A stretch of 64,000 bases of DNA from a virus: IMG/VR virus record IMGVR_UViG_3300011271_000002, positions 32,001 through 96,000 of that record. One strand, 5' to 3'. The number at the start of each line of letters is the position of its first letter. Position 1 is the stretch's first letter. The position numbers and the translations under genes were made by a program. This document shows positions 5,386 to 51,801 of this stretch, one piece after another. The notes under the pieces were generated by a model. It did no database searches. It was not told the origin of the DNA and saw nothing but the letters and a program-made list of their open reading frames with translations.

Positions 5386-5553
5386 TATGATTCTCCGTTT
5401 CTTCTCCCCGCATTTGGGGGTATTTACAAATTCAAGTATAACGACTACAGTCTATTCAGGCGCGAGTCCTGAGCGCACACCATAAGTCTTAGCGGTCGCT
5501 CCGCTTTGGGTGGCAAAGGGCGACGGAGCTTGTGCCTATAAAAAGGAAACCAA

Positions 5554-13604: not shown

Positions 13605-13665
13605 GGCTTAAAGGATAGTTTGACACAAGCTTCGGCGAGAGTTGCGTGATTGGTATTCTGTTGAA

Positions 13666-31359: not shown

Positions 31360-31366
31360 ACCAAAT

Positions 31367-32584: not shown

Positions 32585-32605
32585 GACAATTCTCCTTCTC
32601 TTGAA

Positions 32606-33472
32606 CTATTTGAAATTCTTGTGAAGCCGCCTATGATCTGGGACCACGTATGATCGTGGGCCACCCCGCACCTTCTTGAATGTCACCGTGCCTCCGGACC
32701 AGATAAATCCTTCGCTTTCGGCGATGGCGAATTTAAGCCGCGCTTCTAGGTCTTTCTTGTTTTTTTCCGCGATATCGAATTCTTCATCAGCCAGACGGTA
32801 GCAATTCAACAAGTCTTCTTCTTCTAGCGTGGGTGTTCGCAAGGCCCCATCATTATCAGGGAAACGCTTCTTCAGCCATTCCAATGTTGAATCGGTAGCC
32901 GTTATTTCAGGAGCCTTGCCGTTCAGAACATGATCAACCCAAAATCTTTCGCCCGCCTCGACCAGCATCGCTTCGACTTCCTCGTCGCGAACCACGATAT
33001 ATACCTTCAAGTTGTGCCCGCCGAAAAGAGCGGCTACGTCCCATCGCTCGCGTTCCGGCAGCGCCGACAGGCTCCAATGGCACTGTAAGGCAATCCTGTC
33101 GGGAACTTCCGCGGTACCGGGTTCGCCGAACTTGCCAGCCTGATCCCAGGCCACATTTTTGCAATCTACGCCGATCGGTTCATGGACCACGAAGGCATCG
33201 GGGGTCAGAACTTGATACGGATGCCGGCCCAATATCGTTTTGTCGAACCATTCAATTTCGCGATTTGTCTCGATAGCGTAGCCCTGGGCAATCGCTTGCT
33301 CCAGTAATCGGCCCCAACGCACGCGCGGATTTGAAGCAAAGTCTTCTTGTTCGACCTGGCCGGTCTTAGCGAGCCAGAGATCAAACGCTGAACGCGTGGG
33401 ATGCAGTCCCACCACGCAGGCGATCTCGCTGGCACCTATACCTTTCGAGCGAAGGGCGACATCAACAGGCAT
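32606..33472 (-). CDS. YqaJ-like viral recombinase exonuclease
   Basis: R..GIGASEIA..G, LWLAKTG, WGRLLE, TPD, DCK, QC.W. Confidence 0.9.
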   Translation of the reverse strand: MPVDVALRSKGIGASEIACVVGLHPTRSAFDLWLAKTGQVEQEDFASNPRVRWGRLLEQAIAQGYAIETNREIEWFDKTILGRHPYQVLTPDAFVVHEPIGVDCKNVAWDQAGKFGEPGTAEVPDRIALQCHWSLSALPERERWDVAALFGGHNLKVYIVVRDEEVEAMLVEAGERFWVDHVLNGKAPEITATDSTLEWLKKRFPDNDGALRTPTLEEEDLLNCYRLADEEFDIAEKNKKDLEARLKFAIAESEGFIWSGGTVTFKKVRGGPRSYVVPDHRRLHKNFK

Positions 33473-33738
33473 TAGCTTTTGGCCTGCTCGAATACATGAA
33501 AGACTAGAGAGCCCTCCATCAATTGATAGGTTCCGATGTACCGCAGATCGTCACGGATGAACTCGTGCCCGGTGCCGACAATGCGGAAAGATCTGTGCTC
33601 GTTTTGTTGTCCGGGATCAACGATGGCCCACACTTTGGGCTTATCGCGTTGCGTTTGAACCGCCAATATTTCTGCGCCGCGAGGCATGGCCACGGTTTGA
33701 ACGTCGGTTGTTTCTAAATCAAACTTCCAGATTTTCAT
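33472..33738 (-). CDS. Conserved phage hypothetical protein
   Basis: IWKF.L..MP.GAEIL.VQ.Q..WA.VD..GTGH..YIGT.Q..LVFHVFE. Confidence 0.75.
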   Translation of the reverse strand: MKIWKFDLETTDVQTVAMPRGAEILAVQTQRDKPKVWAIVDPGQQNEHRSFRIVGTGHEFIRDDLRYIGTYQLMEGSLVFHVFEQAKS

Positions 33739-33740
33739 GG

Positions 33741-34238
33741 CTAGTCCTTCTTCCTTGTGGGATTCTTCTTACATCTCGGCTCGTGATACCGCAATTCCAT
33801 CGCGCCTTTGAGTTGCCGGCACCATCGGCAAGGTTTGCCGTTCTTGATTTCTCCCTCGCGCCGATTCGGATTCTTGCCGCAGTTCGGCAGATGGACGTAG
33901 CGGAGCTCGAGCTTGCTCGGTCGCTTTGAATTGCAGTGCGGACACAGAGCAGTCTGGCCGACGAAGCCGACGCGCGTCTTCCGGAGCGCCGCTGACAGCG
34001 CCGACCCGGTGTTGATCCACTCATGATCGTCGATGACGCGATGGCAGCGCGGACAGCGGGAATCGTAGGTTGGCTTGCTCCGAAGATTCTGGCGCAGGGC
34101 TGCCGCGAGCCGGCCGCCAATCTGTATCCAAACCTTCGGCGGGATCTCGCGATAACAATGCGGGCACGCGGTTTTTGAAACGCGATCAATCTGGTTCACC
34201 CTTTGGGCCTCTGCGGCTCTCAACAATAATGCTCCCAT
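33741..34238 (-). CDS. Multi-Zn-finger protein
   Basis: CPHC, CPRC, CPHC, H..C..NP repeats. Confidence 0.6.
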   Translation of the reverse strand: MGALLLRAAEAQRVNQIDRVSKTACPHCYREIPPKVWIQIGGRLAAALRQNLRSKPTYDSRCPRCHRVIDDHEWINTGSALSAALRKTRVGFVGQTALCPHCNSKRPSKLELRYVHLPNCGKNPNRREGEIKNGKPCRWCRQLKGAMELRYHEPRCKKNPTRKKD

Positions 34239-34305
34239 TCGAATCGTTTGTCAAGGCTTGTGGCGGCAATCGTCATTCTGTGCCGCTTTACTGGCTTGTG
34301 TGGTT

Positions 34306-34626
34306 TCATTTTAAGTCCCCCTCAATTCCCAACTCCCTCAGCACTTGTTGGTAATCGTGGCAATGCACTCCCTTGCGCCACTGCTTGTTCTTGACGAACT
34401 TGGCAGATGACGGCCACCACTCCCACGCATCGACTCCGTTGCGAATGATCCAGTGCTGCCCTTCGTTCTTGATTGCCATCGCGAACCCGGCGCGCGCTAA
34501 CGTCGCGGCGAACTGATCTCGGGCTTCGAGGTTCGCTCGTAATCGGCGCTCGTGACGATCTGCCGCGGGCTCGTCGCGGACGAAGGGAACGATAACGCTT
34601 TTCCCGGCTGATCGGGCGTCACGCAT
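34306..34626 (-). CDS. Hypothetical protein
   Basis: N.GQHW...EWWPSSAK. Confidence 0.55.
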   Translation of the reverse strand: MRDARSAGKSVIVPFVRDEPAADRHERRLRANLEARDQFAATLARAGFAMAIKNEGQHWIIRNGVDAWEWWPSSAKFVKNKQWRKGVHCHDYQQVLRELGIEGDLK

Positions 34627-34766
34627 GGCGGCGCTTCACTGGGAATCGCTTCATTCTTTGCCGATCTTGGAGAGTATCACGCTAGGATGCTCTTCACGTT
34701 TACCGCGCACCCATGACGTAGCTCATCTGCGCCGACCACGACAGGTTTGCGGACGAACATCTGCAT

Positions 34767-34901
34767 TTAGTTTCCCGTCCTCCAGAACGCCAGCAATGTC
34801 AGCCCAAGCGCGATAACCGCGATCCAGAAAAAGATCCACAGATATGGCTGGCAGCCGCTGGTATGCTTCGGCGGGCGAGGCTGCGGCACAGGCGGCTTCA
34901 T
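34767..34901 (-). CDS. Small membrane peptide
   Basis: ATGA-coupled; one TM helix. Confidence 0.5.
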   Translation of the reverse strand: MKPPVPQPRPPKHTSGCQPYLWIFFWIAVIALGLTLLAFWRTGN

Positions 34902-35092
34902 GCGATCCGCTCCAGATTGGCTGCGCCGTAGCCTTGTGGTTTGCCTTTCGAATTGAAAAGCGGATTGTCCCACTTAACCAGAAGTCGCGAGGGCGCCACC
35001 TTCACGATGGTGCCAGGGCCGGGTCTGTAAAGCGGGTTCACGCTATTCCCACAATAGCGGACGCGGTCGTCCTTCTTTGGATCTTCGATCAT
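34898..35092 (-). CDS. Hypothetical (SH3/KOW-like) protein
   Basis: DRVRY...GTIVKV....VKWD. Confidence 0.55.
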   Translation of the reverse strand: MIEDPKKDDRVRYCGNSVNPLYRPGPGTIVKVAPSRLLVKWDNPLFNSKGKPQGYGAANLERIA

Positions 35093-35292
35093 ACCGCTGG
35101 CTGCGCGTTAACAAGTTTTATCAACGCCTTTTGCGCACTGAGTTTGTCTGGTCTCACAAAATCCGGCGTGTGTGCTCCATCAAGATAGCCAGCCCAAGAA
35201 CCGCCAGCTGACTCAATGCGTCCGCAAAGCGTGCCGTTGTGATCGCGCAATGATACAACATCGCTTGTGAAATCTTCTTCCCAGGTCCACAT
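35089..35292 (-). CDS. Hypothetical protein
   Basis: GGAG SD; coupled. Confidence 0.55.
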   Translation of the reverse strand: MWTWEEDFTSDVVSLRDHNGTLCGRIESAGGSWAGYLDGAHTPDFVRPDKLSAQKALIKLVNAQPAV

Positions 35293-35294
35293 TT

Positions 35295-35693
35295 TTACTT
35301 CTCCTCTCTAACTTTCCGCCATAACTCCGCGACATCAATCGTGTGGACAGCGCCCTGCTGACAGGCCCACTCTATCGCCTTGCGCTGGTCGGTGTGGCAT
35401 TTGATGGTCAAGCCGCTCAACAGCGCATAGAAATGAGGCTGTCTGTTTTCGAAGTTGTCGAAGCTGGACAGGAACTGCTCGAGGATTCGTTTCGAAACCT
35501 GCTTCGCCGCCGAGAGCCGCAAGCCTCTTCTGTGCAGCTCGGCGAAGATCATGATGTTCAGCGTATCGCGATTGCAGAATTCAAGAGGCCCGCGGCCGCA
35601 GCGAGCGCTATGGATGTACCGATGGTCGCGCCACCACCGAAGCTGGCGGCCGGTGATGCCGGCCAGCCGCATGACATCCACGCTACGAAGCAT
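35295..35693 (-). CDS. MerR-family HTH protein
   Basis: DVMRLAGITGRQLRWW....I, ELHRRGLRL. Confidence 0.75.
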   Translation of the reverse strand: MLRSVDVMRLAGITGRQLRWWRDHRYIHSARCGRGPLEFCNRDTLNIMIFAELHRRGLRLSAAKQVSKRILEQFLSSFDNFENRQPHFYALLSGLTIKCHTDQRKAIEWACQQGAVHTIDVAELWRKVREEK

Positions 35694-35949
35694 CGCTGCT
35701 CCTCTGTAGGTGCGTCCATGGCTCAGGGCAGACGTGCGCGAATCCCCAGCCGTGAACCTGCCAGCCTAATAGAAATACCATCATGAGCGTCACCGGCCCG
35801 GCGGCCGCCGAACCTAAGCCGCTTCGAAGATCGGAGGAGTAGTGCGAGCAGGCGAGAGCGGGAAACTCTCTCTGAAAATTGCGGACAGCGTAGCCAGCGC
35901 CTAAGAGTCCACAGCCTAGCCACGCAATCGCGATCAATACCCAAGTCAT
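35683..35949 (-). CDS. Small two-TM membrane protein
   Basis: Two hydrophobic segments; ATGA-coupled. Confidence 0.55.
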   Translation of the reverse strand: MTWVLIAIAWLGCGLLGAGYAVRNFQREFPALACSHYSSDLRSGLGSAAAGPVTLMMVFLLGWQVHGWGFAHVCPEPWTHLQRSSDAS

Positions 35950-36413
35950 GGCGTGCGGACCCATCGCTGTTTCGGTGTGACCGGATCGGCTTTGCGATTC
36001 GGGCGCGAAGCCCAGCCGTAGCCGCTCTTGTGCGTGCTCATACCGAACGGTGCCCAGCCATCCGCTCGATAGATAGTCCCCTCGTGCCCTTGCTGCGGGT
36101 CGCTATAGGAGATGAGCAGTCGAATTCCGTTGAGCCAAGTGCGCACGTGTTTGCGCATCATCGCGAGCGCTTGAGATTCAACATAGGCGGTCGTATCGTC
36201 GATAAAGTAGAGCCGATTCAATTCAAGGACAAGATCCGCGTCCAGTCCCCGCGAGGATGGCCGACCGAGGATCATCGCCCCGATCAGTTCTCGACCTTCG
36301 ACAAATTCCAGCACGTGAACGAACCCCGACGGCTTCGAACGCAGATAATGCAATTCGGCGATCCACTCTGCCGTGAGCCGCGATTCGGATGGCTGGCACC
36401 GGCGAATGTTCAC
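35946..36413 (-). CDS. Mom-like (GNAT-fold) DNA modification protein
   Basis: HY, IG....GRP, LELNRL, ES, ISYSD..QGH.GTIY.A.GW. Confidence 0.8.
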   Translation of the reverse strand: MNIRRCQPSESRLTAEWIAELHYLRSKPSGFVHVLEFVEGRELIGAMILGRPSSRGLDADLVLELNRLYFIDDTTAYVESQALAMMRKHVRTWLNGIRLLISYSDPQQGHEGTIYRADGWAPFGMSTHKSGYGWASRPNRKADPVTPKQRWVRTP

Positions 36414-38361: not shown

Positions 38362-38982
38362 TCAAGCCGCCCTGGTTTTGGCTCTGATCCTATCGAGAGT
38401 CTTTTCAAAAGCCTCAATTAGATCTAGAAGTGTGTTGTACAGATCAGGCGAGGAGAAAAGTTCCAGTTCCGCCTGGACCTGTTCGCGGAGTTTCACTGAT
38501 CTCGATTCTTCGATCATTCGCGATCTCAAGGATTCGATCCGCAATCGGTCTTGATCGGATCGTTCCCATGCCCAATAAGCCCTGCCGTTTGGAGCGAAAA
38601 TATGACAAGCGAGACAGAGTGTCCGGAGACATCCAGGACGATTATCTCGCCAACTATTCACATGATGCACCTGAAAGGAGTCCGGATGTAAATGCTTCAA
38701 ATTCAGCGTTTGCGGACGAGCACATTTTCGGCATTGATAACCATCGCGTGCCAGAATCAATGGGCGAAGTTTACCGAATTCCGATTGATGTAAGGATGCT
38801 TTGTCGCGAGGCTGCTTCTTCTCGTTTATATATCTGGCGAGACTGGGCTTACAGGATCGATTTCTCTTAAGTTGTTGAAACAACTTAGTTAGGCATGATT
38901 TGCGGAAGCGCAAAAAGTGCTTAACGTTTACGGTCGAGCGTCGGCATTGTTTAGGGTCGATCAAGCCGTCGGCGATGCTCAT
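38362..38982 (-). CDS. HNH endonuclease (McrA-type motif)
   Basis: ILARDGYQCRKC..QVHH..N...LRTLCLACH. Confidence 0.75.
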   Translation of the reverse strand: MSIADGLIDPKQCRRSTVNVKHFLRFRKSCLTKLFQQLKRNRSCKPSLARYINEKKQPRDKASLHQSEFGKLRPLILARDGYQCRKCARPQTLNLKHLHPDSFQVHHVNSWRDNRPGCLRTLCLACHIFAPNGRAYWAWERSDQDRLRIESLRSRMIEESRSVKLREQVQAELELFSSPDLYNTLLDLIEAFEKTLDRIRAKTRAA

Positions 38983-40268: not shown

Positions 40269-40982
40269 TCACCAGGTGCTTACGGCCACTCGCCGCCAGG
40301 TGCCAGTGTTGACGCATGAATAATAGAAGGAGCTATCCACCGCGTATGAGCCTGATACGCACGCCGAGGCGGAGCTTGTCGGCACAGCCACTCTGATCCC
40401 GATCAAGGTCAGATCGGCCCCGAGAGTGGTGATGCCGCCGACGTCCGTCGTCGTCATGCCGGTGCCGGGTTGAATGGCCTTCGTTCCGATAAACGCGCGG
40501 AGATCGGTGCCTCCGTTTATATCCCATGCGCCGTTCGTCGCCGTCCACTGAAAGAGCGGAACGGAATCGGGAGGGAACGAGTTTACGCCGAGAACGGAAG
40601 TGCAGCCCGCGCAGGCGATGGTCAAGTTATGCCCGACCGTCAGGTTTCCTTGCGGGGTTATGTAGAATAGTGCTGCGCCACTGCCGGCCGAGATCGTCGC
40701 TGTCGCGCTGGCGACCAGCGAGTAGACCAAGCTGCCGAAACGCACATTGCAGGGTGTGGGGATGGAACAGCGCGCGCCGATCGTGAGAATGTGCGGATCT
40801 TTGCCGACATCGAAATCCCCAAGCTGGCTCGCCATCGAAGCGCCGGCGCCGGAAATTGTCACGCTGGCTGGCGCGTTCTTGAGATCCTTAGCGCTGAATT
40901 GCGTCGGGCTCTGTGCGAAGGCCCCGGCGATCGCCAGTAGCAGAATCGAAAGCTTTAAGGATTGGTCTTGTAGTCGAAACAT
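40269..40982 (-). CDS. Secreted fibre-like protein 9
   Basis: KLSILLLAIAGAFA-Q signal; C-terminal PTSSASACVSG.YAVDSSFYYSCVNTGTWRRV fibre-tip motif. Confidence 0.75.
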   Translation of the reverse strand: MFRLQDQSLKLSILLLAIAGAFAQSPTQFSAKDLKNAPASVTISGAGASMASQLGDFDVGKDPHILTIGARCSIPTPCNVRFGSLVYSLVASATATISAGSGAALFYITPQGNLTVGHNLTIACAGCTSVLGVNSFPPDSVPLFQWTATNGAWDINGGTDLRAFIGTKAIQPGTGMTTTDVGGITTLGADLTLIGIRVAVPTSSASACVSGSYAVDSSFYYSCVNTGTWRRVAVSTW

Positions 40983-41701
40983 ATCCGGCCATCACCAGGT
41001 TGGAACCGTGCGGGGTTGATGATCGTCACTGTCGTGCCCGTGAGTCCATAATCCTGCCCCGCTTCCCATTGCTGGCCATTCTCATGGACGTAGAGACTTC
41101 CGGAAACAAGAGAAGTTCCGGCCGCTAGTGCTAACGGATAAGAGCCACTGGCATTCGCCGCGTAGCACTCGCCGCGGACGGTCGATGGTGTAGCGGTCGG
41201 CGAGCTAGCCGGAAGCGCCTGCGGCTCCCAGCGGCCTGTGGTGGCGTTCCAAATGAGCGCCTGCCCTTCCTGTGGCGCATTCGGCGAAACAGGCTTGCCC
41301 TGAATCGCGAGCACGGCATTGACACCCAGTGTGCCCTGCACGTCGCCGGTTAAGGCGAGCGCCTGCCAGAGCGCATTAACGCCATCGGTCAAGAGAGACT
41401 GCCCGACGTGTCCGGCCATCGGCGGCAGACCGGATCCTCCGGTCGGTGTCACGGTAAAGATTCCAGGTGTGCCGCCAAGCGCAGGCGCGGGCCCGGTCGG
41501 CGGCGTGAGCTTTGCGCCGACGAGAATCGCGCAGCCGCACTGATAGGCCATTCCGTTATTGACTGGCCAACAGGTAAACACCACAGGCTGTGGCGCGAGC
41601 GGCACGCAGGAGCCAGGCACGATGTCTTTGATGTTGATTTGCGTGGGGGACTGAGCCTGGAGAGTCAAACAGAGCCATATCGAAATGAATGCTGATCTCA
41701 T
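40955..41701 (-). CDS. Secreted fibre-like protein 8
   Basis: MRSAFISIWLCLTLQA-Q signal; LTGDVQG...IQGKPVS..AP.EGQALIWN...WEP repeat; VHENGQ....GQDY C-domain. Confidence 0.75.
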   Translation of the reverse strand: MRSAFISIWLCLTLQAQSPTQINIKDIVPGSCVPLAPQPVVFTCWPVNNGMAYQCGCAILVGAKLTPPTGPAPALGGTPGIFTVTPTGGSGLPPMAGHVGQSLLTDGVNALWQALALTGDVQGTLGVNAVLAIQGKPVSPNAPQEGQALIWNATTGRWEPQALPASSPTATPSTVRGECYAANASGSYPLALAAGTSLVSGSLYVHENGQQWEAGQDYGLTGTTVTIINPARFQPGDGRICFDYKTNP

Positions 41702-41733
41702 GGAGCGCAGTCTAGCACGATCCGGCAATAACC

Positions 41734-43230
41734 TTAGTGTATCGCTCCTCCAGCCAACACGCTCTTGCTGGATAACTGTCCACCGCCCATCGGGCCGAAC
41801 ACCACCACGGTATTGGAAAACGTGCTCAGATAGACCTTGCCGTTCGCAACAGTGGGCGAGACATACTTGGCACAATTACCAACGGCGTCTCCAGCCTTGG
41901 CGGTTGAATCGTATAGTAGGGACAGTGTCGTGCCATCGAAGGCCCGCAGCGCTCCGACCTGTGTAACGTCCAGATTGTATACTTGGCAGGAATTCACCCA
42001 AAGTATTCCATTGGAGGCTCCGTTTGAGCTGTAGGCCACTCCCGACATATAAGTCGGATACACATAGCTAGTAGCAGATGGAGTGGTCGTGAATGTCGTT
42101 CCGTTGTATGTGTTGCGTTGGATTCCCGCTGGCAGAGCCGGATTGACATGCGAGTTATCAATAGTGTAGAGACCGTTGTTGGCAAAGGCTGAAGCGTCAA
42201 AAAGTTCTATCTGCCCTGCCCAATCCTGCACCTGAGAACTTGGTGAGGCAGCAACCTGAGTATGTCCCATGTTGCTCTGGTCGGTTATCCACCAAACGCC
42301 GTTCTTGCCGCCGGACATCACGCGCGTGCCGACCAGGATTGGGCGTCCAGAACCTTGATCGGTATCGTTGGTATTGAGCGTGGCCCACCCGGAGTTGACG
42401 AGATAATCTTGGACAACCAGGGAAGAGTTTAGTTTGAGGATGCATTCACCGAAATTGTTGGTGCCGTCGAATGATCCGTTTCCAACTGTACAGTAGACAT
42501 TTCCAGAACCATCGGCAGCCATGCCTCCGCCCGCCTGCCAGATTCCGCCTCTTCCCCCGCTCGTGTTGACTGTGACAAACACGGCAGTTTGAGCAAGCGT
42601 CGTTGAATTGTAAGCAAATGCCCAGCCCTGCCATGTACCGCCGTCGTTGTAGCTGGCAAATCCGAAGTCCACCTTTCCACCGGATAACAGCAGGGCAGTC
42701 CTCGCCTGATGGCTGGTGGAATCAAAGGTTAACCCTTGGGCGGTACCGGAAATAGTGACGGCGGCGTGGAATGTGGACCCATCGGAGATATTGAGCGCAA
42801 AAAGTTTCCACACATCGGTTGAGTTCACGCAGACTAGATAGATCACGCCAGCCGACGAATCGATGACTGGTGTGCTGGTGCAACCAACCTTGGCTGCCGA
42901 GAAGTTCGTATCCGTGGTGGTTTTCGGAGTGTCGAGATGTTGGCTCCAGATAGCTGATCCGCAGCCATCCGCATTAAAGGCGTAGACGGTATCGTTGTCG
43001 GTGGCCACAAAGATCCGATTCGGGCTCCCACTCATATATAGGACTTGTCCGTAAACCAAACCATCCACCGAGTACGAACATAGTTTGCCAAATGCCCCAC
43101 TCACTTTGGCGGTAGTTAGTATGGTCTCGGTTGTGGTCGCGTTTGTACGCGAATTGTCGTACTGACCGGTGAGTACATCGGCACACGCATGGCAGCCAAA
43201 CAATAGAAAACTTACAAGCAAGGTCCTCAT
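41734..43230 (-). CDS. Secreted PQQ-like beta-propeller protein
   Basis: MRTLLVSFLLFGCHACA-D signal; VLT.QYDNSRT, VDG.VY.Q.LY, STPVID, GGIWQAG, PTVANGKVY. Confidence 0.85.
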   Translation of the reverse strand: MRTLLVSFLLFGCHACADVLTGQYDNSRTNATTTETILTTAKVSGAFGKLCSYSVDGLVYGQVLYMSGSPNRIFVATDNDTVYAFNADGCGSAIWSQHLDTPKTTTDTNFSAAKVGCTSTPVIDSSAGVIYLVCVNSTDVWKLFALNISDGSTFHAAVTISGTAQGLTFDSTSHQARTALLLSGGKVDFGFASYNDGGTWQGWAFAYNSTTLAQTAVFVTVNTSGGRGGIWQAGGGMAADGSGNVYCTVGNGSFDGTNNFGECILKLNSSLVVQDYLVNSGWATLNTNDTDQGSGRPILVGTRVMSGGKNGVWWITDQSNMGHTQVAASPSSQVQDWAGQIELFDASAFANNGLYTIDNSHVNPALPAGIQRNTYNGTTFTTTPSATSYVYPTYMSGVAYSSNGASNGILWVNSCQVYNLDVTQVGALRAFDGTTLSLLYDSTAKAGDAVGNCAKYVSPTVANGKVYLSTFSNTVVVFGPMGGGQLSSKSVLAGGAIH

Positions 43231-44117
43231 GGATGTATCCATGCGATTCCTAAATTGTCGGCGTTGTTAGCAAATGCTCCAAGCGTGGCTGGTAGAGTCG
43301 TCCCGCTGATGGAATTTGCCACTTTTCCAGCAACCCCAAAACTAGTATCTAACAGCAACTCGATGTTCCCCGTGGCATTCACCGCTCCGATAAGGCCTAC
43401 GCCACTATCCGTGCAACCTATCGCAGAGTAGTAAAAGCCTGGGTTCAGAACAACCGTGGTGATCGTGGTGGTTTTGACCCCCGTGGCCGCACTGGAAATA
43501 GCCCCCGAGGTCAGAAGGAGGGTGTTGCCCGTATTGTCATATACACCGACCAAGCAATTACTTGCCGCAATGGCGGTCGTAACGAGGATGTCTATTTTGG
43601 TGACCGACAGGGTGAATGGAAGATTAAATAGAGCGGCTTGAACGCTATTAGAGCCAGGGTTGTTCCAAGGCGTGCCGTTGATAGTGGCAATCGCTGGATT
43701 GCCGAACGGTAACAAAATACCGCAATTGCCGCTTGAGCAACTGAACCCGCCCGCCGCCGTAGTCTGCGGATTTTGCAATTCCCATTGCGTGCCAGTTGTG
43801 TTGTAGATCGCACAGGCTTGGGCAGTGGTGATAATGTCGTTAGCCACGAGAGCGCCGCCTGCCTTGACGATGGGGTGGGCTGTTAGGCCGTTGGGCGAGA
43901 AGCTCGGCGCGGCTGCGGTGTTGGCCGCTGTTGGCTTCCAGCAGACATGCAATCCGTCGTAGAGTCCGGTAATCGCTGGGGAGTAGGTGGCCGTCTGCGC
44001 CTGGGCTGTGCCGCCGCCAGCTATCCAGTTATGAGCACCGTCCACCGTGCGGGATCCTTCCCTAGTCTGAGCAAGCGTTACTACCGAAACAACGAGGATG
44101 ATTGCAACTTTTTTCAT
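43227..44117 (-). CDS. Secreted fibre-like protein 6
   Basis: MKKVAIILVVSVVTLA-Q signal; IAGGGTAQAQTAT module; C-terminal beta-sandwich. Confidence 0.75.
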   Translation of the reverse strand: MKKVAIILVVSVVTLAQTREGSRTVDGAHNWIAGGGTAQAQTATYSPAITGLYDGLHVCWKPTAANTAAAPSFSPNGLTAHPIVKAGGALVANDIITTAQACAIYNTTGTQWELQNPQTTAAGGFSCSSGNCGILLPFGNPAIATINGTPWNNPGSNSVQAALFNLPFTLSVTKIDILVTTAIAASNCLVGVYDNTGNTLLLTSGAISSAATGVKTTTITTVVLNPGFYYSAIGCTDSGVGLIGAVNATGNIELLLDTSFGVAGKVANSISGTTLPATLGAFANNADNLGIAWIHP

Positions 44118-44122
44118 AACGC

Positions 44123-44854
44123 TCAGTGAACCACAAAGACGCTTGGAGTGCTCACATAGCTCAGGGCCGACGTGTCCATTTCAACAGCGACAACGCCGAA
44201 AGCGCTCGCCGATGTTCCGCCCCAAGTAATTGTTGTGCCTGTGAACCCGCTATCACGAGTCTCATAGTCCGCTCCGGTGGAAGGCGTGTTGTATCCAGTG
44301 TCGGACTGCCGCGTCCAACTTGACGTGACTGTAACGCCTCCTGTGTTGGTACCGTTGCCGACGCAACTGAGCGTTGGGTTTCCGGTGAGAGCCGAACCTG
44401 TAAAGGTAGTAGCGGGCGTGCCGGATGCAGCCTGGTTACTAGACACTTTGGATTGTTTAACGGCGCTGGAACCTTTTCGCGTCATGCCGCTTATGCGAGC
44501 CACCATTACGATCGCGCCGGTGGCGTTGCCGCCAGAAGTGTTGAACGTCACGGTCATTGAGGAATTCGCGGCGAGCGCGTTGGCCACAAAGACGTAGATC
44601 GTATCCGCGCTGCTGTTTTTTAATGCAGTTGTGATCTGGGTGAAGCCTAGGGACTGGGAGTCGGTGAGACTGCCCGCAGTATTGCCGCTGGATATAACGC
44701 AGGCGTACAGGAGATCATTCGCGGCCGGCGTGAAGGAACCGCTCGCGTAGGTCGAAACGTTGGAAGTGCTGGCCGTAGAAACCCCAGCCGTCACCGCCGC
44801 TGCCGAGAGAGAAAGCGAGAGCGCGAGCAGTATCAACAAGCCGCGCCGCATCAC
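44123..44854 (-). CDS. Secreted Ser/Thr-rich beta protein 5
   Basis: MRRGLLILLALSLSLSA signal. Confidence 0.75.
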   Translation of the reverse strand: MMRRGLLILLALSLSLSAAAVTAGVSTASTSNVSTYASGSFTPAANDLLYACVISSGNTAGSLTDSQSLGFTQITTALKNSSADTIYVFVANALAANSSMTVTFNTSGGNATGAIVMVARISGMTRKGSSAVKQSKVSSNQAASGTPATTFTGSALTGNPTLSCVGNGTNTGGVTVTSSWTRQSDTGYNTPSTGADYETRDSGFTGTTITWGGTSASAFGVVAVEMDTSALSYVSTPSVFVVH

Positions 44855-47800
44855 CTCATCACCATCCAGTTTAGGGTGATCGCTCCTGGAGTGACGGAAG
44901 ACCCGGTGTTATTGCACGTCTTAAAATTCACATTTCCAGAAGTAGGATACGCGATGATAGTCAACATCCCGCTTGTGGATGGGACGTAGCCGGTAACCGC
45001 TGTCGGATCGCCGTTAAAGCTGGCTACCAGTACATCGGTCGATGCCACGCCGGTTGCGGTGGACGTGACTACAGTGGCGCACGCTCCGGAGGAAATCGCT
45101 CCAGTTCCCATCGCCGCCGTGCCGCTGGCAATAGTCTGACTGAGGATATTTGATCCGGCGGCCGTGGGGACCGTGCTGCCATTGATCGAGGTCAGGCTGG
45201 CTAGTGTCGAAACACCTGTAGCATCCCCGTTCCCGACTCCCTGATGACTGGCGAGCCGAATCAACGGCAAGGTGGTAGAAAGCGTAGGGAATGCTGTTCC
45301 ATCAGGGAATGTGGGCCAAGTTCCGCTGGTTGCGATCACCACACCAACCGTAATGCCCGTGCCGCATGGAGTAGTACCGCCGCTATCGGTCACCTTTCCG
45401 GCGGTCGTTCCCGCGCACACGGTATGACCTATCGTGACGGCCGCCGAAGCATTCACCGGTATTTCAGACGGGGCTGCAGCCACTGTGACTTGAATAGTGC
45501 TCGACTTTGAAAGCGCTATCCCGGCGATGACCTTGGGGGAGGCGCTGCAATCCGTCGCTGTCTTTGCAGTAGAGGTATAGCATTCAAGATTCCACTGAGT
45601 AACGGTGCCGCTCTGAGCGTAGGACTCCGCGACCAGGAGTAATCCTTGAAGGCCCGTACTGGTAGCACCGGTGCTAGATCCTGCCAGTAACTCAGCCGAC
45701 CCACCCGCACTCGCTGTATTCGTAGCGGCATTCGATCCGCCGGCATGGAGCGCACCGCCGCCCTGTGAAGACGCTCCACCTGCGCCGGTTTCGTTCGCTC
45801 CGCGTAGCGTCACAGATCCAAGGGCCGAGTTTGCCGATGCGTCCTGGCCGCCGATATAAGTGAGCGCCTGTGTAGAGGTCGGCGATTGCAATTTGTTCGT
45901 TCCATCCTGAAAACTGGCTAACTCAACGTATCCTTGTGACTCGATTCTAAGATGGGTATCGTAAGTCCCGCCTCCTCCGTTGGTAGTAAGAACCCGTCCC
46001 AGTATTTGTCCGATGAGAGGAACCGTCGCGCCCGCATCGTGACAGTCGCCAGCGGTGGTGGTCGATATCTGTACATAATCGCCAGCGGTGGTAGCCCCGT
46101 CGTATATACACTGAGTCATTCCGGCTATGCTGATTTCGGCGGTGCTAGTAGTGCCACAGCCGGAAACGCAAATGCCTATAACGCCGTTCGTATCGGTAGT
46201 GAGTGGCGTAACTGCTGTACTTGGAGCTCCAGTCAATTTAGCCAACTTGTTCAGTGTCGTCCCCGTCGAACTGGCGTTCGTGTGCGTCATCGTGATCGCC
46301 ATGTTGCCCACGCTGAGATTGGTATTCAGCGACGGAAAAACTAAGTTGGATAGAGCCGTGTTCGCGCCGCCAGTACCGCTTCCACTCTTAAGAAGCAAAA
46401 CGTACCCCGCCGTGGCGGTATCCCAGTTGATTGTCACATCATACTGCGTCCCGCCCGCCGCCATCTCGCAATGCGCGTCCTTCGGCTGAAGCCACTGACG
46501 AGTTGTCCCTGATGTGACCAAGGTGGTAAAGGACAAATCGCAAGTGCCCAAACCGTGAACCGAGTTGGGGATGCTCCAAGTTGTAGCCGAAGCTTCGGCG
46601 GCGGCGTAAGATCCAGATCCGCCAGAGAAAGGCATCACGCCACCAGAGCGCTGGGTAAACGTATTAGCCGTGACGGCATTGGTGGAAAACGCCACCGTGA
46701 AGTCCACGAACAGAGCGGCGGTTAAATCGATGTTTGAGGATACGGCGGTATTTGTATCTACAAATACTGAGTCTGCTGTAGTCGTCAACGCGCCTAAATC
46801 GACAGCCAATGGACCATGGATCTCAAGGTTCCCCGAGGCCCCGGTGGTAGCAGTATAGCCGAGCACGGCAAGATTCCAGTTGTTATTCGTGACCGCTGCA
46901 ATGGTGGCGGTGCTGACAATCGAAACGAGTGTCACCACTGTTCCCGATCCGCAGCCGCTTACGGTGCAAAGTTTGGTCTTGAGAGTAATCGTTGGAGTCT
47001 GGGCAGTTTGGGTTGAGTACGTTCCAGCCCCATCGAACAGAAACGGTTGACGGAGGTTATTCAAATACCCGGTCGGCAAGGCTAGTTCCATTAACGTCTG
47101 ATCAGATGTCGTATTGGTATTCACCGTCACAGCGCTGAGATTAACAACTGCACCACCAGGCGGAGTGATCGGGATATAACCGGACACACTGCTACCTGAA
47201 GTTTGCCACGTTACATTAACATTACCCCCCGGCGCGGCGGGCGTGGCTGCGTTGAAGTTTGGACTAGAAACCGATCCGCCATTTACTGATACGCTGGTGC
47301 CGCCTCCTCCTCCACTGATCACTTCGGCAAAGTAGTTAGTGCCATCTGACCAGACGCGCCAGCCAGTAGGAGCCGTTGCCGAGCCCGCCGTGCCGGTAAG
47401 ATTCGCAGCCGCACCGTTGATGTTCTGTCCGCTACGCGCAAGTATCACAACGCCAGTTCCATAGTTCAAGATCGTGATGTAATTTCCATTCACAGGTTGA
47501 GAACCGGAAGCCACGAGCGTAATGGTAAAAGTGCCAGAGGCCACGAGAATAGTTTTGTAGTTGGTGAAGTCGGCGGCTAGGACTTGGTAGGCAGCGGTTT
47601 GAGCGTTGGAGGCGAATGGAGCGCCGAGAACGACCTGGCGGCTTGAGTTCGTGGCTAGTAGAGCGGCAGACAAAGGAAGAATAAGACCATTGGTTCCCGT
47701 GATCTGATCGGAGATGTTGATGTCCACGCCGGATGCTACTACCTGCACTGCCCCGCCATTGTTGTTGTTCATCTTCCAACGATGCGCGGCGCTATCGGCA

Positions 47801-48273
47801 TAGAATAGATCCGAGTTCGCCACGCCAGCAGGCGCGGAGCCTTCCGGTTCCGACACTCCATGCCAACTACTTCCAGGGACTCCCGTCACCACACCCGTCA
47901 TGTTCGTACCGTCATATGAGAAAATTTGTTCAGTGCAATTCGTGGTCCCAGCTGCAGGATCAGGCTGGCTACCGCTAAGGATGTTTGAAGAGAACGTGTA
48001 TGTCCGACTACCGACTGAATCCTGGCACGAGCGTAGGAGATATAGCCCCGGTCCTTCCGTCGTGGCGCTGAAAGCCAGTGTGGTGTTACCCGCCCCGAAG
48101 TCCACCTCGCAGACATTCGTATTTAGGAAATTACACGTTGTCGTCCCACCCGAATTGAACGTCGGCTTATTGACATTGCCGTTTGAGAACAATGATGGAA
48201 CGCCGTTCAAGGTTAAAGTTTGAGCCGCCATCGGCACGCACGAGATGGTGAGTAGTATTAGGGCTTGGCGCAT
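44851..48273 (-). CDS. Large secreted fibre/adhesin-like protein 4 (1140 aa)
   Basis: MRQALILLTISCVPMAA-Q signal; Thr/Gly/Ser-rich modules, paired Cys, cement/DUF2190-like segments. Confidence 0.8.
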   Translation of the reverse strand: MRQALILLTISCVPMAAQTLTLNGVPSLFSNGNVNKPTFNSGGTTTCNFLNTNVCEVDFGAGNTTLAFSATTEGPGLYLLRSCQDSVGSRTYTFSSNILSGSQPDPAAGTTNCTEQIFSYDGTNMTGVVTGVPGSSWHGVSEPEGSAPAGVANSDLFYADSAAHRWKMNNNNGGAVQVVASGVDINISDQITGTNGLILPLSAALLATNSSRQVVLGAPFASNAQTAAYQVLAADFTNYKTILVASGTFTITLVASGSQPVNGNYITILNYGTGVVILARSGQNINGAAANLTGTAGSATAPTGWRVWSDGTNYFAEVISGGGGGTSVSVNGGSVSSPNFNAATPAAPGGNVNVTWQTSGSSVSGYIPITPPGGAVVNLSAVTVNTNTTSDQTLMELALPTGYLNNLRQPFLFDGAGTYSTQTAQTPTITLKTKLCTVSGCGSGTVVTLVSIVSTATIAAVTNNNWNLAVLGYTATTGASGNLEIHGPLAVDLGALTTTADSVFVDTNTAVSSNIDLTAALFVDFTVAFSTNAVTANTFTQRSGGVMPFSGGSGSYAAAEASATTWSIPNSVHGLGTCDLSFTTLVTSGTTRQWLQPKDAHCEMAAGGTQYDVTINWDTATAGYVLLLKSGSGTGGANTALSNLVFPSLNTNLSVGNMAITMTHTNASSTGTTLNKLAKLTGAPSTAVTPLTTDTNGVIGICVSGCGTTSTAEISIAGMTQCIYDGATTAGDYVQISTTTAGDCHDAGATVPLIGQILGRVLTTNGGGGTYDTHLRIESQGYVELASFQDGTNKLQSPTSTQALTYIGGQDASANSALGSVTLRGANETGAGGASSQGGGALHAGGSNAATNTASAGGSAELLAGSSTGATSTGLQGLLLVAESYAQSGTVTQWNLECYTSTAKTATDCSASPKVIAGIALSKSSTIQVTVAAAPSEIPVNASAAVTIGHTVCAGTTAGKVTDSGGTTPCGTGITVGVVIATSGTWPTFPDGTAFPTLSTTLPLIRLASHQGVGNGDATGVSTLASLTSINGSTVPTAAGSNILSQTIASGTAAMGTGAISSGACATVVTSTATGVASTDVLVASFNGDPTAVTGYVPSTSGMLTIIAYPTSGNVNFKTCNNTGSSVTPGAITLNWMVMR

Positions 48274-48596
48274 TCAAGCACGTTCTCTTTGGCAAACTTG
48301 GCTTCATCCAGTTGGCAGATTGCTCGAACTACTATCAGATAAGCATCGAATTCTCTTTCCGCCGCGATCCGCGCCGCCTGGGCATTTATTTCGTCGAGCC
48401 GCTTCTCCATCATTTTTGCCCGCTTGCTCCAATAGATGATCTGCATGGGAGCTAGGATGACAGGCGAATCTTTCTTGCTCTCCGGCGTGGCGACTGTTTC
48501 TTTCGTGGCGTCGGCCACCGGCTTTTCGTCCTGTTGCTTCGTTTGGCCAGCAAAGGATAGACTCGCACACAATACGAAAAATAGTAACCGTGTCAT
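48258..48596 (-). CDS. Secreted coiled-coil protein 3
   Basis: MTRLLFFVLCASLSFA signal; helical; two C-terminal Cys. Confidence 0.7.
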   Translation of the reverse strand: MTRLLFFVLCASLSFAGQTKQQDEKPVADATKETVATPESKKDSPVILAPMQIIYWSKRAKMMEKRLDEINAQAARIAAEREFDAYLIVVRAICQLDEAKFAKENVLECAKP

Positions 48597-48605
48597 TCTC
48601 GGTTC

Positions 48606-49631
48606 CTACATGTTGATGACGGAGATGCCGGTAGCGTAAGAATTGGTTCCGTCGTCGAGAAACGATACAACTGTACACTTCGACGCCGTAAGACCGATGT
48701 CTGGATGACCCAACATCGTGGCTGGCCAAACGAAGGTAAAGTTCCCAGTTCCATTTTGGCAGACTTTGATTATTGGCTCAAGGCCGTTCGAATGATTCGA
48801 TACCGTCGCTCCGGTGACGTTGCCGGTCAGTGTGATGGTGAAAATGTCCGACAAACTTAGATCAAAATTAGGCGTGGCGGAAAATGACACCGTCGTGCTC
48901 TTGTGTGCCATGTTGCCTGGCAGAATGATGGCAGTAGCCAACGAGATCACCGGAGTTGTACCTCCAGTGCTCGCGATTTGATTGCTCGTACCGTTGACTG
49001 CTGTCACGGAACCACCAGCGCTACCACAAGCCCCTGACTGAGGATTGAATAGTTGGAATTGAGTTCCATCATAAATGACTTCGGCCACGGCCGCCGTGAT
49101 CAGATCATTCGCCACAAGAGCCGTAGTTCCGCACTTCGTGATGGCCGTGGCGGTAAGACCATTGACCGCTAGCGTCGGAGCCGCTCCGGTATTGGCCGCA
49201 TTCGGCTTGAAATAAAGCGTGAGACCGGTCGTCAACGCCGTAGCGGCAGGAGCTAGCGTTGCGGTCTGAGCTTGCGCCGTGCCACCACCCGCGATGTAGT
49301 CGGTTGCGTTGAGATCAGAGAAACTCTTGCCAGCTGGATCGGCTCCCGTCACGCCACTCAAGATAGCTAGGTTCGCAAGCGCTACGCCGCCGATCGCATT
49401 GCCAGAAGCTGCGTTAACCGATACGCTATGATTCGCCGCCCCGCTATTGACGTTGCAGGTAGAACCTAAGGTACAGGTCTGGCCATTGACGGTAGTGGAA
49501 GCATTACTCAGCGAGCCGTTGGTAACACTAGCCAGCGTTTGATTTGGGACGCCATTGATGGTGCCGGTACCTTGTGCGAAAGCCGCTATTGCGATTAGCT
49601 GCAACGAGAAGGCGAGACGAAGAGAACGCAT
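48606..49631 (-). CDS. Secreted fibre-like protein 2
   Basis: MRSLRLAFSLQLIAIAAFA-Q signal; AANTGAAPTLAVNGL fibre motif; C-terminal FSATPNFDLS..ITLTGNVT..CQ.G.G..F.W module. Confidence 0.8.
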   Translation of the reverse strand: MRSLRLAFSLQLIAIAAFAQGTGTINGVPNQTLASVTNGSLSNASTTVNGQTCTLGSTCNVNSGAANHSVSVNAASGNAIGGVALANLAILSGVTGADPAGKSFSDLNATDYIAGGGTAQAQTATLAPAATALTTGLTLYFKPNAANTGAAPTLAVNGLTATAITKCGTTALVANDLITAAVAEVIYDGTQFQLFNPQSGACGSAGGSVTAVNGTSNQIASTGGTTPVISLATAIILPGNMAHKSTTVSFSATPNFDLSLSDIFTITLTGNVTGATVSNHSNGLEPIIKVCQNGTGNFTFVWPATMLGHPDIGLTASKCTVVSFLDDGTNSYATGISVINM

Positions 49632-49653
49632 TTTGTTTTGTATCCTTCTTGTG

Positions 49654-50451
49654 TCATTGATTGATGAGACCCTTAGCGTAGATTTGATCACCATCCGAAG
49701 TGAAATCCTGTGTTGAACATTTGCTTGCTATCAATCCTACCCCAAAACCGCCGTGCACGCGCGCGGCCCAAGCGAAGGTGTGATTTCCGGCCGGGTCCTG
49801 GCAGATCGTTATGGTGATCGTCTGTCCAGCCAGAACGTTGGGGAAAGTCTGATTCGTCACGTTGCCGGTCAATGTTATTTTGAAGGCGGTCGCCACGCTG
49901 AGATCGAATACCGGTGTGGCAGAATAAGGCACAGTTAAAAAAGTTGGCGGGCTCTGCGGTCCCCATTGCACGACGCCGCCTATCACCTCGAGCGCATAAC
50001 CATTCGATCCAATCGGCGTCAGTTGATTTATGTTCAGCGCGAACGGCGTGGCGGGTAAGGCGTTGACCTGAACTCCGGAAAGATCCAGCGTCGTCCCCGT
50101 ATCCGGCACGCTCCAGAAATCGCGGTACACGATCCCGTTCGTGTGGTACTCCGCAACGTATCCGAGCGGCGCCGTGGTGGTGCCCGTGGCCGTACTTCCG
50201 ATCGTTGGTTGCAGATTGACATCGAGGTATCCGGTGTTCGCTCCGGATGTGGGGATATCGTATCGGAAAACTGTGGTGGTGACCGCTACGCCACCGGCCG
50301 TCCGGAAGGGACGATTTGCCTGGATCAACACGTAGCCTGTCGCCGGTGCGCTGCCCGGGCCCGCGACATTGAGCAATTGGCGAATGTGCGTGATCGCGCC
50401 CAATGGCATGGAGACGCTCAGAAGAGCAAGTACTGCCAGCCTGTGACGCAT
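49654..50451 (-). CDS. Secreted fibre-like protein 1
   Basis: GGAGGT SD; MRHRLAVLALLSVSMPLGA signal; C-terminal YSATPVFDLS..ITLTGNVT..CQD module. Confidence 0.8.
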   Translation of the reverse strand: MRHRLAVLALLSVSMPLGAITHIRQLLNVAGPGSAPATGYVLIQANRPFRTAGGVAVTTTVFRYDIPTSGANTGYLDVNLQPTIGSTATGTTTAPLGYVAEYHTNGIVYRDFWSVPDTGTTLDLSGVQVNALPATPFALNINQLTPIGSNGYALEVIGGVVQWGPQSPPTFLTVPYSATPVFDLSVATAFKITLTGNVTNQTFPNVLAGQTITITICQDPAGNHTFAWAARVHGGFGVGLIASKCSTQDFTSDGDQIYAKGLINQ

Positions 50452-50694: not shown

Positions 50695-50924
50695 TCGGCA
50701 AGATCCGCTTCGCCGTGACTCGCGTTCCAGTGCGGAATCTCGCCACAGGCCGCGCAGTGCACGAACTTGCCCACGGTACCGCCGGGCGCATCGTGGCCGC
50801 ATTCCAGTGCCACTCTTCGCGGCGTCATCGACGGGCACTCGCATTTCGTGGATCGCCGGTGGCAGGCAATGCAGAACGCGACTACTTCGCGTAGGAGTTT
50901 GAAGGCGCCGGATTTGAAGCCCAT
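50691..50924 (-). CDS. Small Cys-rich protein
   Basis: CIAC, LECGH, CAAC; GAGG SD. Confidence 0.55.
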   Translation of the reverse strand: MGFKSGAFKLLREVVAFCIACHRRSTKCECPSMTPRRVALECGHDAPGGTVGKFVHCAACGEIPHWNASHGEADLAD

Positions 50925-51265
50925 TTGCTATTCCTCTGAATCTGCCTGTGTTTGATGATTAGTTCCGCCATCACCTCGGGATTTCTGTAGACGATCCTGC
51001 TTTTGCATCGCTGGCGCATCGCATCGTCGATCTCTTGAACTCCTCGAATCAAATTGCAGTAACGATGGGCCAGTTTAAGATTCTCGCTGACCGTCTGCCC
51101 TTTCTTAAAGCGCGGCACAACGTGATCGAGGGAAGCGCGAACATCGTGGCTCAACGGAAGATGAGAAAGAAACCTACCACGAAATAGCATCGGCAGTTCG
51201 CAGATCCAGCACAGCTCGCCGTGTTCGTGGCGCATCCGCACGAGATTCGAGCGCAGACTTTTCAG
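50882..51265 (-). CDS. HNH endonuclease (start uncertain, possibly CTG at 51265)
   Basis: CWIC..M, ASLDHVVP...G....NL.LAH..CN..RG. Confidence 0.8.
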   Translation of the reverse strand: MKSLRSNLVRMRHEHGELCWICELPMLFRGRFLSHLPLSHDVRASLDHVVPRFKKGQTVSENLKLAHRYCNLIRGVQEIDDAMRQRCKSRIVYRNPEVMAELIIKHRQIQRNSKWASNPAPSNSYAK

Positions 51266-51801
51266 CCGATCATCCTCAACTGTTCCGGCCAGTGCTCCGC
51301 GCAAATGAATGAGCGGTCATCGCCAAGGTCGCGGATGTGTCGGAAGCAGCCTGGCTGTCCGCATTGGACGCGCTGTAGGGTCAGGACGACGTCGCTCTTT
51401 TTCCAGTAATATTCGTCGACGCGGCGGTCGCCACCAGACTTGTTCCGCTTCCTCCGGACGATAACGCGCATCGTGTGATCCATGACAACTCCCTGCTGAT
51501 TGAGGTCCGCGATTTGCAGAATGTGGCCCTGGCGAGTTCGCTTCATATTTGAGCATTCGTCGCCAACCTGGAGAAGATCCACGCGCTTGGGCAGGAACAA
51601 TTCAACCGGCCAGATACAGCGGCCATCGGCGGCGGCCGCGCACTGGTAGCAGAGCTGATGTTTGCATGTGCAATCGGTGAAAGTGCCCGTCATCGAAACC
51701 GTCATCGCGGTGCAAAACTGGAAAATCTGGCCATGCTCGCGCGGGCAGCGATGGCAGAATGGACGGTCGCTTCGACAGATCGCGCAGAAGGCGGAAGTCA
51801 T
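51262..51801 (-). CDS. Cys-rich hypothetical protein
   Basis: ATGA-coupled start MTSAFCAIC; multiple CxxC. Confidence 0.55.
   Translation of the reverse strand: MTSAFCAICRSDRPFCHRCPREHGQIFQFCTAMTVSMTGTFTDCTCKHQLCYQCAAAADGRCIWPVELFLPKRVDLLQVGDECSNMKRTRQGHILQIADLNQQGVVMDHTMRVIVRRKRNKSGGDRRVDEYYWKKSDVVLTLQRVQCGQPGCFRHIRDLGDDRSFICAEHWPEQLRMIG

Follow-up and report, generated by a model that had tools for sequence, protein, structure and literature searches.

The question raised by this locus is why a phage with a tail module of its own should also carry a run of nine genes whose products begin with secretion signals. The phage is the IMG/VR record IMGVR_UViG_3300011271_000002, a genome of 104,422 bp with a CheckV completeness of 100 % and direct terminal repeats (123 bp by our own count). 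The stretch analysed, hereafter called the window, comprises 64,000 nucleotides, bases 32001–96000 of the 104,422-bp record, and coordinates refer to the window unless the genome is named. The nine genes, here called g1 to g9, lie consecutively on the minus strand at 40269–50451, packed tightly or overlapping, and occupy 10 kb, about one tenth of the phage genome. A first-pass annotation had described them as an operon of exported, tail-fibre-like proteins. Because secretion signals are found here on fibre and spike families that normally do without them, all nine proteins are, judged from their sequences, very probably exported and folded outside the cytoplasm, and cassettes of such signal-bearing fibre derivatives are real and widespread. 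The function is the weakest step of the explanation; the reading preferred below, held tentatively, is that the proteins act as free glycan-binding or glycan-processing factors on envelope polysaccharides or exopolysaccharide (EPS).

Export signals, cysteines and position of the block

By direct reading, all nine N-termini consist of an n-region with K or R, an uncharged hydrophobic run of 8–12 residues and a small-x-small site. From g1 to g9, cleavage is predicted at LGA↓I, AFA↓Q, SFA↓G, MAA↓Q, LSA↓A, TLA↓Q, ACA↓D, LQA↓Q and AFA↓Q, with Gln at position +1 in the five proteins for which it had been claimed (g2, g4, g6, g8 and g9). A twin-arginine signal was not recognised, no RR motif being present in the nine leaders. 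Besides the direct reading, signals were called with two rule-based scans, one strict and one loose. The loose rule flagged nine of the nine block genes and 11 of the 67 other open reading frames (ORFs) of at least 150 amino acids in the same genome (a background of 16 %), at which rate nine consecutive calls would be expected by chance with a probability of about 4e-4. The strict rule, applied to the whole genome, picked out the block and elsewhere only scattered ORFs, none of them a tail gene. Nine consecutive minus-strand genes with Sec-type N-termini, as first described, were thus borne out by the direct reading and by both scans.

Each gene starts at the higher of its two coordinates, g7 at either 43242 or 43230. 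Recognisable Shine-Dalgarno motifs precede g1 (GGAGG, 9 nt 5' of the ATG), g2 (AAGGA), g3 and g5, and none is clear for g8 and g9. The signals of g2 and g8 start at internal methionines of the longest ORF (Met22 and Met59, respectively). None of the in-frame alternative starts skips the leader and keeps the conserved mature residues. A scan of the block for promoters and terminators gave no excess compared with shuffled sequence.

The mature proteins contain, from g1 to g9, 2, 6, 2, 18, 2, 6, 8, 6 and 6 cysteines, an even number in all nine, in agreement with the paired cysteines noticed earlier. Among the other ORFs the number of cysteines is even in 38 and odd in 29, and the fibres encoded at 2908–8129 have 3, 0 and 0. 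Thr, Gly, Ser and Asn are abundant in the nine proteins, and charged residues are scarce.

The tail module, at 2.9–18.3 kb of the window, has fibre-like genes (2908–8129), a J-like central fibre gene (8140–12201) and the tape measure gene (14842–17793), none of them with a signal. The head genes (major head protein, protease and portal) are outside the window, at 20–26 kb of the genome. The distance from the block to the tail-module fibres is 22 kb. On one flank the block has genes for an HNH endonuclease, an SbcC-like ATPase and a RecE-like exonuclease, and on the other a second HNH gene, a radical-SAM gene and a replication initiator gene. The HNH endonuclease genes near the two block ends (38362–38982 and 50882–51304) are both on the minus strand, the left one being separated from g9 by three small ORFs. 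The description of the tail genes as distant and signal-less, and of the block as placed among replication and recombination genes, therefore stood.

Domains of the nine proteins

Pfam, NCBIfam and PADLOC searches of the nine proteins gave no family matches, and the PHROGs gave three matches, weak or partial (g6, g8 and g9). Sequence searches of the PDB with g7, g4 and a g2 profile gave no match. When the nine were compared with each other by blastp, only two modules were found to be common, one to g1 and g2 and the other to g2 and g6. The protein g1 (49654–50451, 265 amino acids) consists of an N-domain of no known family and a C-terminal tip domain (residues 173–262) with 49 % identity to residues 247–336 of g2. 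The protein g2 (48606–49631, 341 amino acids counted from Met22) has a Cys-bearing N-region, a fibre module at 109–203 and the tip domain at 247–336. The fibre module has 60 % identity with residues 28–123 of g6 (43227–44117, 296 amino acids), where a C-domain follows it.

An AlphaFold2 model of g2, built from 81 sequences, has two confident domains with a predicted local distance difference test (pLDDT) score of 90–96. The module common to g6 superposes on a tail fibre chain of Pseudomonas phage Pa193 (9b45_2) with Z 10.3, a root mean square deviation of 3.4 over 100 residues and 28 % identity. The tip domain common to g1 matches the tailspike of Acinetobacter phage Solidus in its C-terminal domain (24qj, Z 9.0) and domain 79–180 of CBA120 TSP4 (Z 7.2), and a Pa223 capsid spike was matched as well. 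Among the predicted viral structures of BFVD more than 215 match g2 at E ≤ 1e-3, many of them named tail fibre. The same module is present in a signal-less fibre protein of a cultured podophage, Rhodoferax phage P26218, where a gene resembling a Ralstonia phage tail fibre precedes it by four genes and a gene with GH108 and peptidoglycan domains follows four genes downstream.

The homotrimer model of g6 reached an ipSAE of 0.84, compared with 0.00 for the best of three controls; in the calibration, 20 of 30 solved pairs and 1 of 23 single chains attained the mark. Contacts agreed between the runs to at least 62 %, with a pLDDT of at least 79. The model supports g6 being a trimeric fibre, g6 being the one of the nine that was modelled in this way, and possibly reflects likeness to solved fibres. 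The PHROG match of g6 is phrog_25864. The C-terminal domain of g9 (40269–40982, 237 amino acids), at about residues 130–237, matches the C-terminus of phrog_17312, 'tail protein' (E 1.5e-9), and in tblastn it matches tailspikes and depolymerases of Klebsiella phages, among them K64-1 S2-6 and RaK2. On these sequence and model comparisons g2, by homology g1 and g6, and the C-terminus of g9 are assigned to the fibre/spike domain class. None of the nine proteins had similarity to the tail-module fibres in blastp, and the idea that the block encodes decoys copying the phage's own receptor-binding domains was rejected for that reason. The block was also considered as the target of a diversity-generating retroelement (DGR) and rejected, as no direct repeat of at least 40 nt occurs within the 64-kb window.

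The protein g7 (41734–43242, 502 amino acids) was modelled with AlphaFold2 as an 8-bladed beta-propeller similar to the pyrroloquinoline quinone (PQQ) type (pLDDT 87.7, predicted TM score 0.90). Foldseek matched the model to quinoprotein dehydrogenases, BamB and tetrathionate hydrolase at E 1e-15 to 1e-12, so the nearest solved folds are periplasmic proteins. Relatives with 36–48 % identity carry PF13360 or PF13570, g7 itself being below the Pfam threshold, and its membership of the PQQ-like 8-bladed propeller family follows from the predicted fold and from these relatives. Cellular relatives are often fused to ricin-B, F5/8-C (discoidin), carbohydrate-binding module (CBM), legume-lectin, chitobiase-C or immunoglobulin domains. 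The g7 leader also fits a lipobox (LFG↓C), which is not conserved in the relatives. Residues W231, N251, D291 and K309 are conserved in the family and are given only as a lead towards the PQQ- and metal-binding residues and the catalytic Asp of PQQ-dependent dehydrogenases. Distant, signal-less g7-like propellers were also seen at three loci (L200, L201 and L203) with a conserved protein of about 590 amino acids encoded upstream. We presume that this neighbour has an alpha-amylase-like motif (GFTAVQLPP), which would be another hint of a carbohydrate role of the propeller family.

The largest protein, g4 (44851–48273, 1140 amino acids), has a mosaic body with 18 cysteines and a high content of Thr, Gly, Ser and Asn, whose modules are found again in other signal-bearing proteins. 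At E ≤ 1e-3 it matches 5078 representative clusters, different parts matching different proteins; residues 390–567 (178 residues), for example, are 82 % identical to part of a signal-bearing, otherwise different protein of 784 amino acids in another phage locus (L002). An Atlas search with g4 gave scores below 0.9, and no model of g4 is present there. The g4 superfamily, with more than 5000 clusters at 50 % identity, most of them with signals, thus appears to be a large unstudied class of extracytoplasmic soil-phage proteins.

The family of g5 (44123–44851, 242 amino acids) has more than 260 relatives at 45–60 % identity, most of which start with 'MAAVTH.VST.STSN', that is, with the residues directly after the predicted cleavage site of g5. 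Atlas look-alikes of g5 are 92–100 % viral. Signals were found in 38 of 120 relatives, and 46 of the 48 relatives in viral loci are without one, the remaining two both being within signal-bearing clusters. Among four annotated loci, a signal-less relative is encoded just downstream of the portal gene in one (L125) and just downstream of the major head gene in another (L165), and in both the family sits in the virion gene module. Since signal-less relatives begin at the post-cleavage residues of g5 and nearly all viral relatives have no signal, the g5 signal is, as far as N-termini can tell, a lineage-specific addition grafted onto a normally signal-less family.

The remaining two proteins are smaller. 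The body of g3 (48258–48596, 112 amino acids, its end overlapping the start of g4) has 96 residues and 2 cysteines and is charged and apparently helical; searches for families or relatives of g3 found none. The protein g8 (40955–41701, 248 amino acids counted from Met59, 6 cysteines) has a weak match to phrog_11585, and its mature start, QSPTQ..KD, resembles that of g9. Tail-fibre motifs, at first ascribed to all nine bodies, were therefore recovered in g1, g2, g6 and g9 and were not recognised in g5, g8 or most of g4. As a predicted beta-propeller and a small, apparently helical protein, respectively, g7 and g3 are not fibres. Taken together, at least g1, g2, g5, g6 and g9 probably derive from virion fibre and spike families by addition of a signal, and the same is probably true of g4.

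Related clusters in other viruses and the host

Counts of signals in relatives are to be read against the loose-rule background of 16 %. Signal-like N-termini were found in 78 of 120 relatives of g2, in 109 of the 149 best relatives of g4 and in 92 of 120 relatives of g7, and most of the signal-bearing relatives of these three proteins are predicted to be cut before Gln. Among the minority without signals, the N-terminus is either of the classic fibre type or a membrane anchor. Sites predicted to be cleaved before Gln (AQ or GQ) were also very common in exported proteins linked to Acidobacteriota, both in metagenome-assembled genomes (MAGs; loci L006 and L010–L015) and in the sets of g2 and g4 relatives. 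The corresponding Q-rule has been described for Bacteroidota only, and Acidobacteria are not mentioned in the paper on it.

The closest 30 or so g2-like genes in IMG/VR are mostly signal-bearing and lie in runs of 3–7 signal-bearing genes. In 11 of the 12 closest viral loci with g7-like genes, a signal-bearing propeller follows directly after another signal-bearing protein. One contig (L185) has eight signal-bearing ORFs consecutively, and another (L189) has g1/g2-, g4- and g7-like genes together. Similar signal-bearing clusters, often combining fibre and propeller, were found in dozens of viral contigs, so the search for such clusters in related phages that had been proposed with the first-pass annotation was successful. 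Scans of viral contigs for g7, g5 and g9 gave nothing with single sequences and gave matches with alignments.

In two whole related genomes, G003 (119 kb) and G005 (63 kb), the signal cluster is separated, in G003 by about 40 kb, from a set of very large signal-less ORFs; these ORFs, which are unannotated, were taken as structural genes. G003 is the complete phage IMGVR_UViG_3300021479_000008, with a G+C content of 44 % and its cluster at 30203–36259, in which a protein of 1070 amino acids has two g2 modules. Since its G+C content is quite different, signal-bearing clusters may not be confined to one host group.

The signals kept in relatives, the even numbers of cysteines, the propeller of periplasmic type and the grafted signals are the basis on which oxidative folding is predicted. 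Export and oxidative folding, as proposed in the first-pass annotation, are hence supported by sequence, and the assembly of all nine into one multi-subunit fibre was supported by none of the tests run. Signals proved to be conserved, fibre folds to be present and the block to be no ordinary host locus, so that the outcomes examined left the proposed exported set standing.

The host phylum is very probably Acidobacteriota, a sequence-based assignment made because every one of the best matches to the g2/g6 module in cellular genomes comes from Terriglobia, Bryobacteraceae, Solibacteraceae or Terracidiphilus MAGs and because the tail genes of a Terracidiphilus locus (L007) are 25–38 % identical to those of the phage. 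Sequencing runs listed with the block are of soil DNA only, none of RNA, and most of them may come from the source sample itself. A search of the phage genome for tyrosine and serine recombinases (PF00589, PF00239) found none. As the record is complete and has no integrase or resolvase, an integrating, temperate lifestyle is improbable, and the phage is probably a virulent siphophage of Acidobacteriota. A lysogenic-conversion moron of a temperate phage was accordingly rejected as an explanation of the block.

In Acidobacteriota MAGs the fibre module occurs in signal-bearing proteins of 1000–2500 amino acids at chromosomal-looking loci. Genes similar to g4 were found in 3 of 201 Acidobacteriota genomes, each time within a giant ORF, and in 2 of 5 selected genomes. 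This rarity in the 201 genomes led to the rejection of a captured host locus.

Role of the exported proteins

In the preferred reading, the block encodes Sec-exported proteins as an accessory cassette beside the ordinary signal-less tail fibres of the phage. The genes would be expressed before lysis, and the chains would cross the inner membrane unfolded through SecYEG and be cut by signal peptidase I, often exposing Gln. Formation of disulfides and trimerisation would follow outside the cytoplasm. Instead of being built into the particle in the cytoplasm, the proteins would act free, binding and perhaps cutting glycans. Their target would be host envelope polysaccharides or EPS, met in the periplasm during polymer export or after release at lysis. 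As an outcome, receptors would be stripped or masked, rival phages excluded, and progeny kept off debris and matrix. Free factors are favoured because the ordinary fibres are kept elsewhere and the block lies among non-structural genes, and because the propeller family is tied to carbohydrate-binding domains and an exported tailspike-like protein, WceF, provides a precedent (PMC7949094). The matches of the g9 tip to the C-termini of depolymerase tailspikes also speak for a carbohydrate link.

Several points weigh against this reading. Signal-bearing fibre-like genes come directly after a tape-measure-like gene in one contig (L027) and about 2 kb from the major head gene in another (L029/G002), a placement more in keeping with a virion role than with a free one. 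Neither a catalytic domain nor a sugar-binding site was identified in any of the nine proteins, the Pfam, NCBIfam and PADLOC searches included. A Sec signal alone would lead only to the periplasm of a diderm, and no route across the outer membrane is evident. The modules common to g1, g2 and g6 could serve for docking within a single complex. Finally, both export, read from rule-based signal calls, and the expression of the block before lysis are inferred.

The alternative that survives best, itself unlikely, is a post-lysis addition to the virion, in which the nine proteins mature in the periplasm and dock at lysis on particles built in the cytoplasm, as a second, branched set of recognition fibres. 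The fibre and spike folds and the predicted g6 trimer are in line with it, as are the modules common to g1, g2 and g6 and the contigs in which signal-bearing fibre-like genes adjoin head or tail genes (L027, L029/G002). The g2 tip domain, moreover, resembles the XD2 domain of CBA120 TSP4, which we take to be a domain of the branched tailspike complex of that phage, and it is known from classic in-vitro complementation that fibres can join finished particles. Against these stand the signal-less fibres already encoded by the tail module, the location among replication and recombination genes, the lack of a recognisable virion-attachment domain in the nine proteins, and g7 and g3, which are not fibre-like. 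The fuller version, in which assembly as a whole is split over two compartments (with Sec export, disulfides and pyroglutamate on one side) and joined at lysis, the nine proteins with the propeller forming a second branched adsorption apparatus, is slightly more doubtful.

Less probable is display on the surface of the infected or carrier-state cell, where the fibres would serve as adhesins to neighbours or soil polymers, or as an outer receptor mask. This would be comparable to the MAT proteins, signal-bearing fibre-like trimers on a cell surface (PMC10769870). The large signal-bearing proteins of Acidobacteriota MAGs (1000–2500 amino acids) share the fibre module, and in some relatives a membrane anchor at the N-terminus replaces the cleavable signal. 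The nine proteins themselves have no lipobox (g7 possibly excepted), no PEP-CTERM, no barrel-type C-terminus and, by blastp, no common anchoring N-domain, and a long-term benefit to a lysogen is unlikely as no integrase was found.

Still more improbable is that the N-termini are not export signals at all and instead are chance hydrophobic leaders, assembly tags removed by a phage protease or products of miscalled starts, the proteins being ordinary cytoplasmic fibres. The calls are rule-based, the loose rule flags 16 % of the other ORFs, g8 and g9 have no clear Shine-Dalgarno motif, and signal-like leaders of capsid proteins have been ascribed to cleavage by a prohead protease (PMC10367356). 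It is opposed by the nine signals being consecutive, with canonical n/h/c architecture and AXA sites, by their conservation across families with the same A↓Q sites, by the even cysteine counts and by the export of the g7 family in cellular genomes. Nor does any alternative in-frame start spare the conserved mature residues. Hardly credible is a recently captured, ordinary host surface-protein locus carried as passive cargo: the family of g7 is a large bacterial one, host proteins also contain the fibre module and HNH genes flank the block, but g4-like genes are found in only 3 of 201 Acidobacteriota genomes (2 of 5 selected), the G+C content of the block equals that of the rest of the phage, the domains of g5, g2 and g9 are of phage families and similar clusters are present in many viral contigs.

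The export of single proteins by phages has been described before, T5 Llp, the Cor-type exclusion lipoproteins, spanins and signal-arrest-release (SAR) endolysins all being Sec substrates. These are single small proteins not derived from fibres, and none is a nine-gene cassette; T5 Llp, which masks the receptor and protects progeny, follows the same logic as is proposed here for the block. Phage tail-fibre-like proteins working outside the virion also have a parallel in PblA and PblB of Streptococcus mitis phage SM1, which are active on the bacterial surface. Unlike the block proteins, PblA and PblB are signal-less and are released by holin and lysin to bind again to the cell wall of a Gram-positive host. 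With canonical fibres and tailspikes, branched multi-spike sets among them (Pa193, Solidus, CBA120 TSP4, K64-1 and RaK2), the block shares domain folds, mosaic shuffling and proteins encoded side by side, and a trimer is predicted for g6. Those proteins are signal-less, folded in the cytoplasm and encoded with tail genes, whereas the block proteins are all signal-bearing with even cysteine counts and are encoded 22 kb from the tail module.

Two bacterial systems come close. The MAT family of Bdellovibrio bacteriovorus comprises 21 paralogues with one conserved beta-rich domain of about 130 amino acids after the signal (PMC10769870). Its members likewise have a signal followed by a phage-fibre-like trimer, with swappable tips, occur as paralogues and act outside the cytoplasm (PMC10769870). 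They differ in being encoded by a bacterium and in having a common N-domain, of which the block has no counterpart by blastp, MAT being set apart here by its description. As the block is neither in the tail module nor without signals, and lacks the MAT N-domain, it belongs to neither the canonical nor the MAT class. WceF of Pantoea stewartii is an exported tailspike-like trimer that trims the cell's own EPS, with a Tat (twin-arginine translocation) signal, a beta-helix and glycanase activity, and is the functional precedent for the preferred reading (PMC7949094). It is a single gene of a bacterial EPS biosynthesis cluster and its signal is of the Tat type, whereas those of the block are of the Sec type; no beta-helix was detected in the models of g2 and g7. 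Phages of Porphyromonas gingivalis have signal-bearing genes of unstated function that obey the Q-rule, and so share with the block the use of Sec and the Gln at +1 after cleavage (PMC10367356).

In view of the bacterial signal-bearing, fibre-like trimers (MAT and WceF), the first-pass statement that no described system is like this one was too strong. For a phage-borne cassette of signal-bearing fibre derivatives no description was found in the literature. Fibre-type proteins with signal peptides have been regarded as bacterial and not phage in origin; one example is the remark that the DGR targets of phages are without the signals present on the corresponding bacterial proteins (PMC6199706).

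That a complete phage gives 10 kb to what appear to be exported derivatives of fibre and spike proteins has consequences under either role. If glycans are stripped, masked or bound, this would add a new layer to phage–host and phage–phage competition in matrix-rich soil bacteria, and the proteins would offer glycan binders and enzymes stabilised by disulfides. In textbooks, tailed phages are assembled entirely in the cytoplasm, a paradigm that would need an exception if the proteins join virions after lysis.

Some features outside the block were also observed. In the tail module, two adjacent minus-strand genes (2908–4200 and 4201–4974) encode signal-less proteins with a nearly identical N-terminus of 27 amino acids, after which they differ in the manner of alternative tips on a single attachment domain; a PHROG tail-fibre match was obtained for 4201–4974 only and not for 2908–4200. 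Near these genes, and on the strand opposite to the tail fibres, an ORF of 118 amino acids (5554–5910, plus strand) adjoins the tail-module ORF of 740 amino acids at 5907–8129. It has a lipoprotein-type leader (…AALIC↓SGC) and is a candidate o-spanin or Llp-like exclusion lipoprotein. Three small ORFs, at 849–1160 (minus strand), 13642–13956 (plus strand) and, outside the window, 29220–29750 of the genome (minus strand), have twin-arginine-like leaders with RRLFF, RRLFF and RRALF, respectively, followed by a hydrophobic run, which suggests that a few other phage proteins use Tat-type rather than Sec-type export. The ORF at 28456–30381 (minus strand, 641 amino acids) has a weak match to a large terminase (phrog_2666, 2e-12), and a large ORF in the head region, at 29953–31665 of the genome, is a rival terminase candidate.

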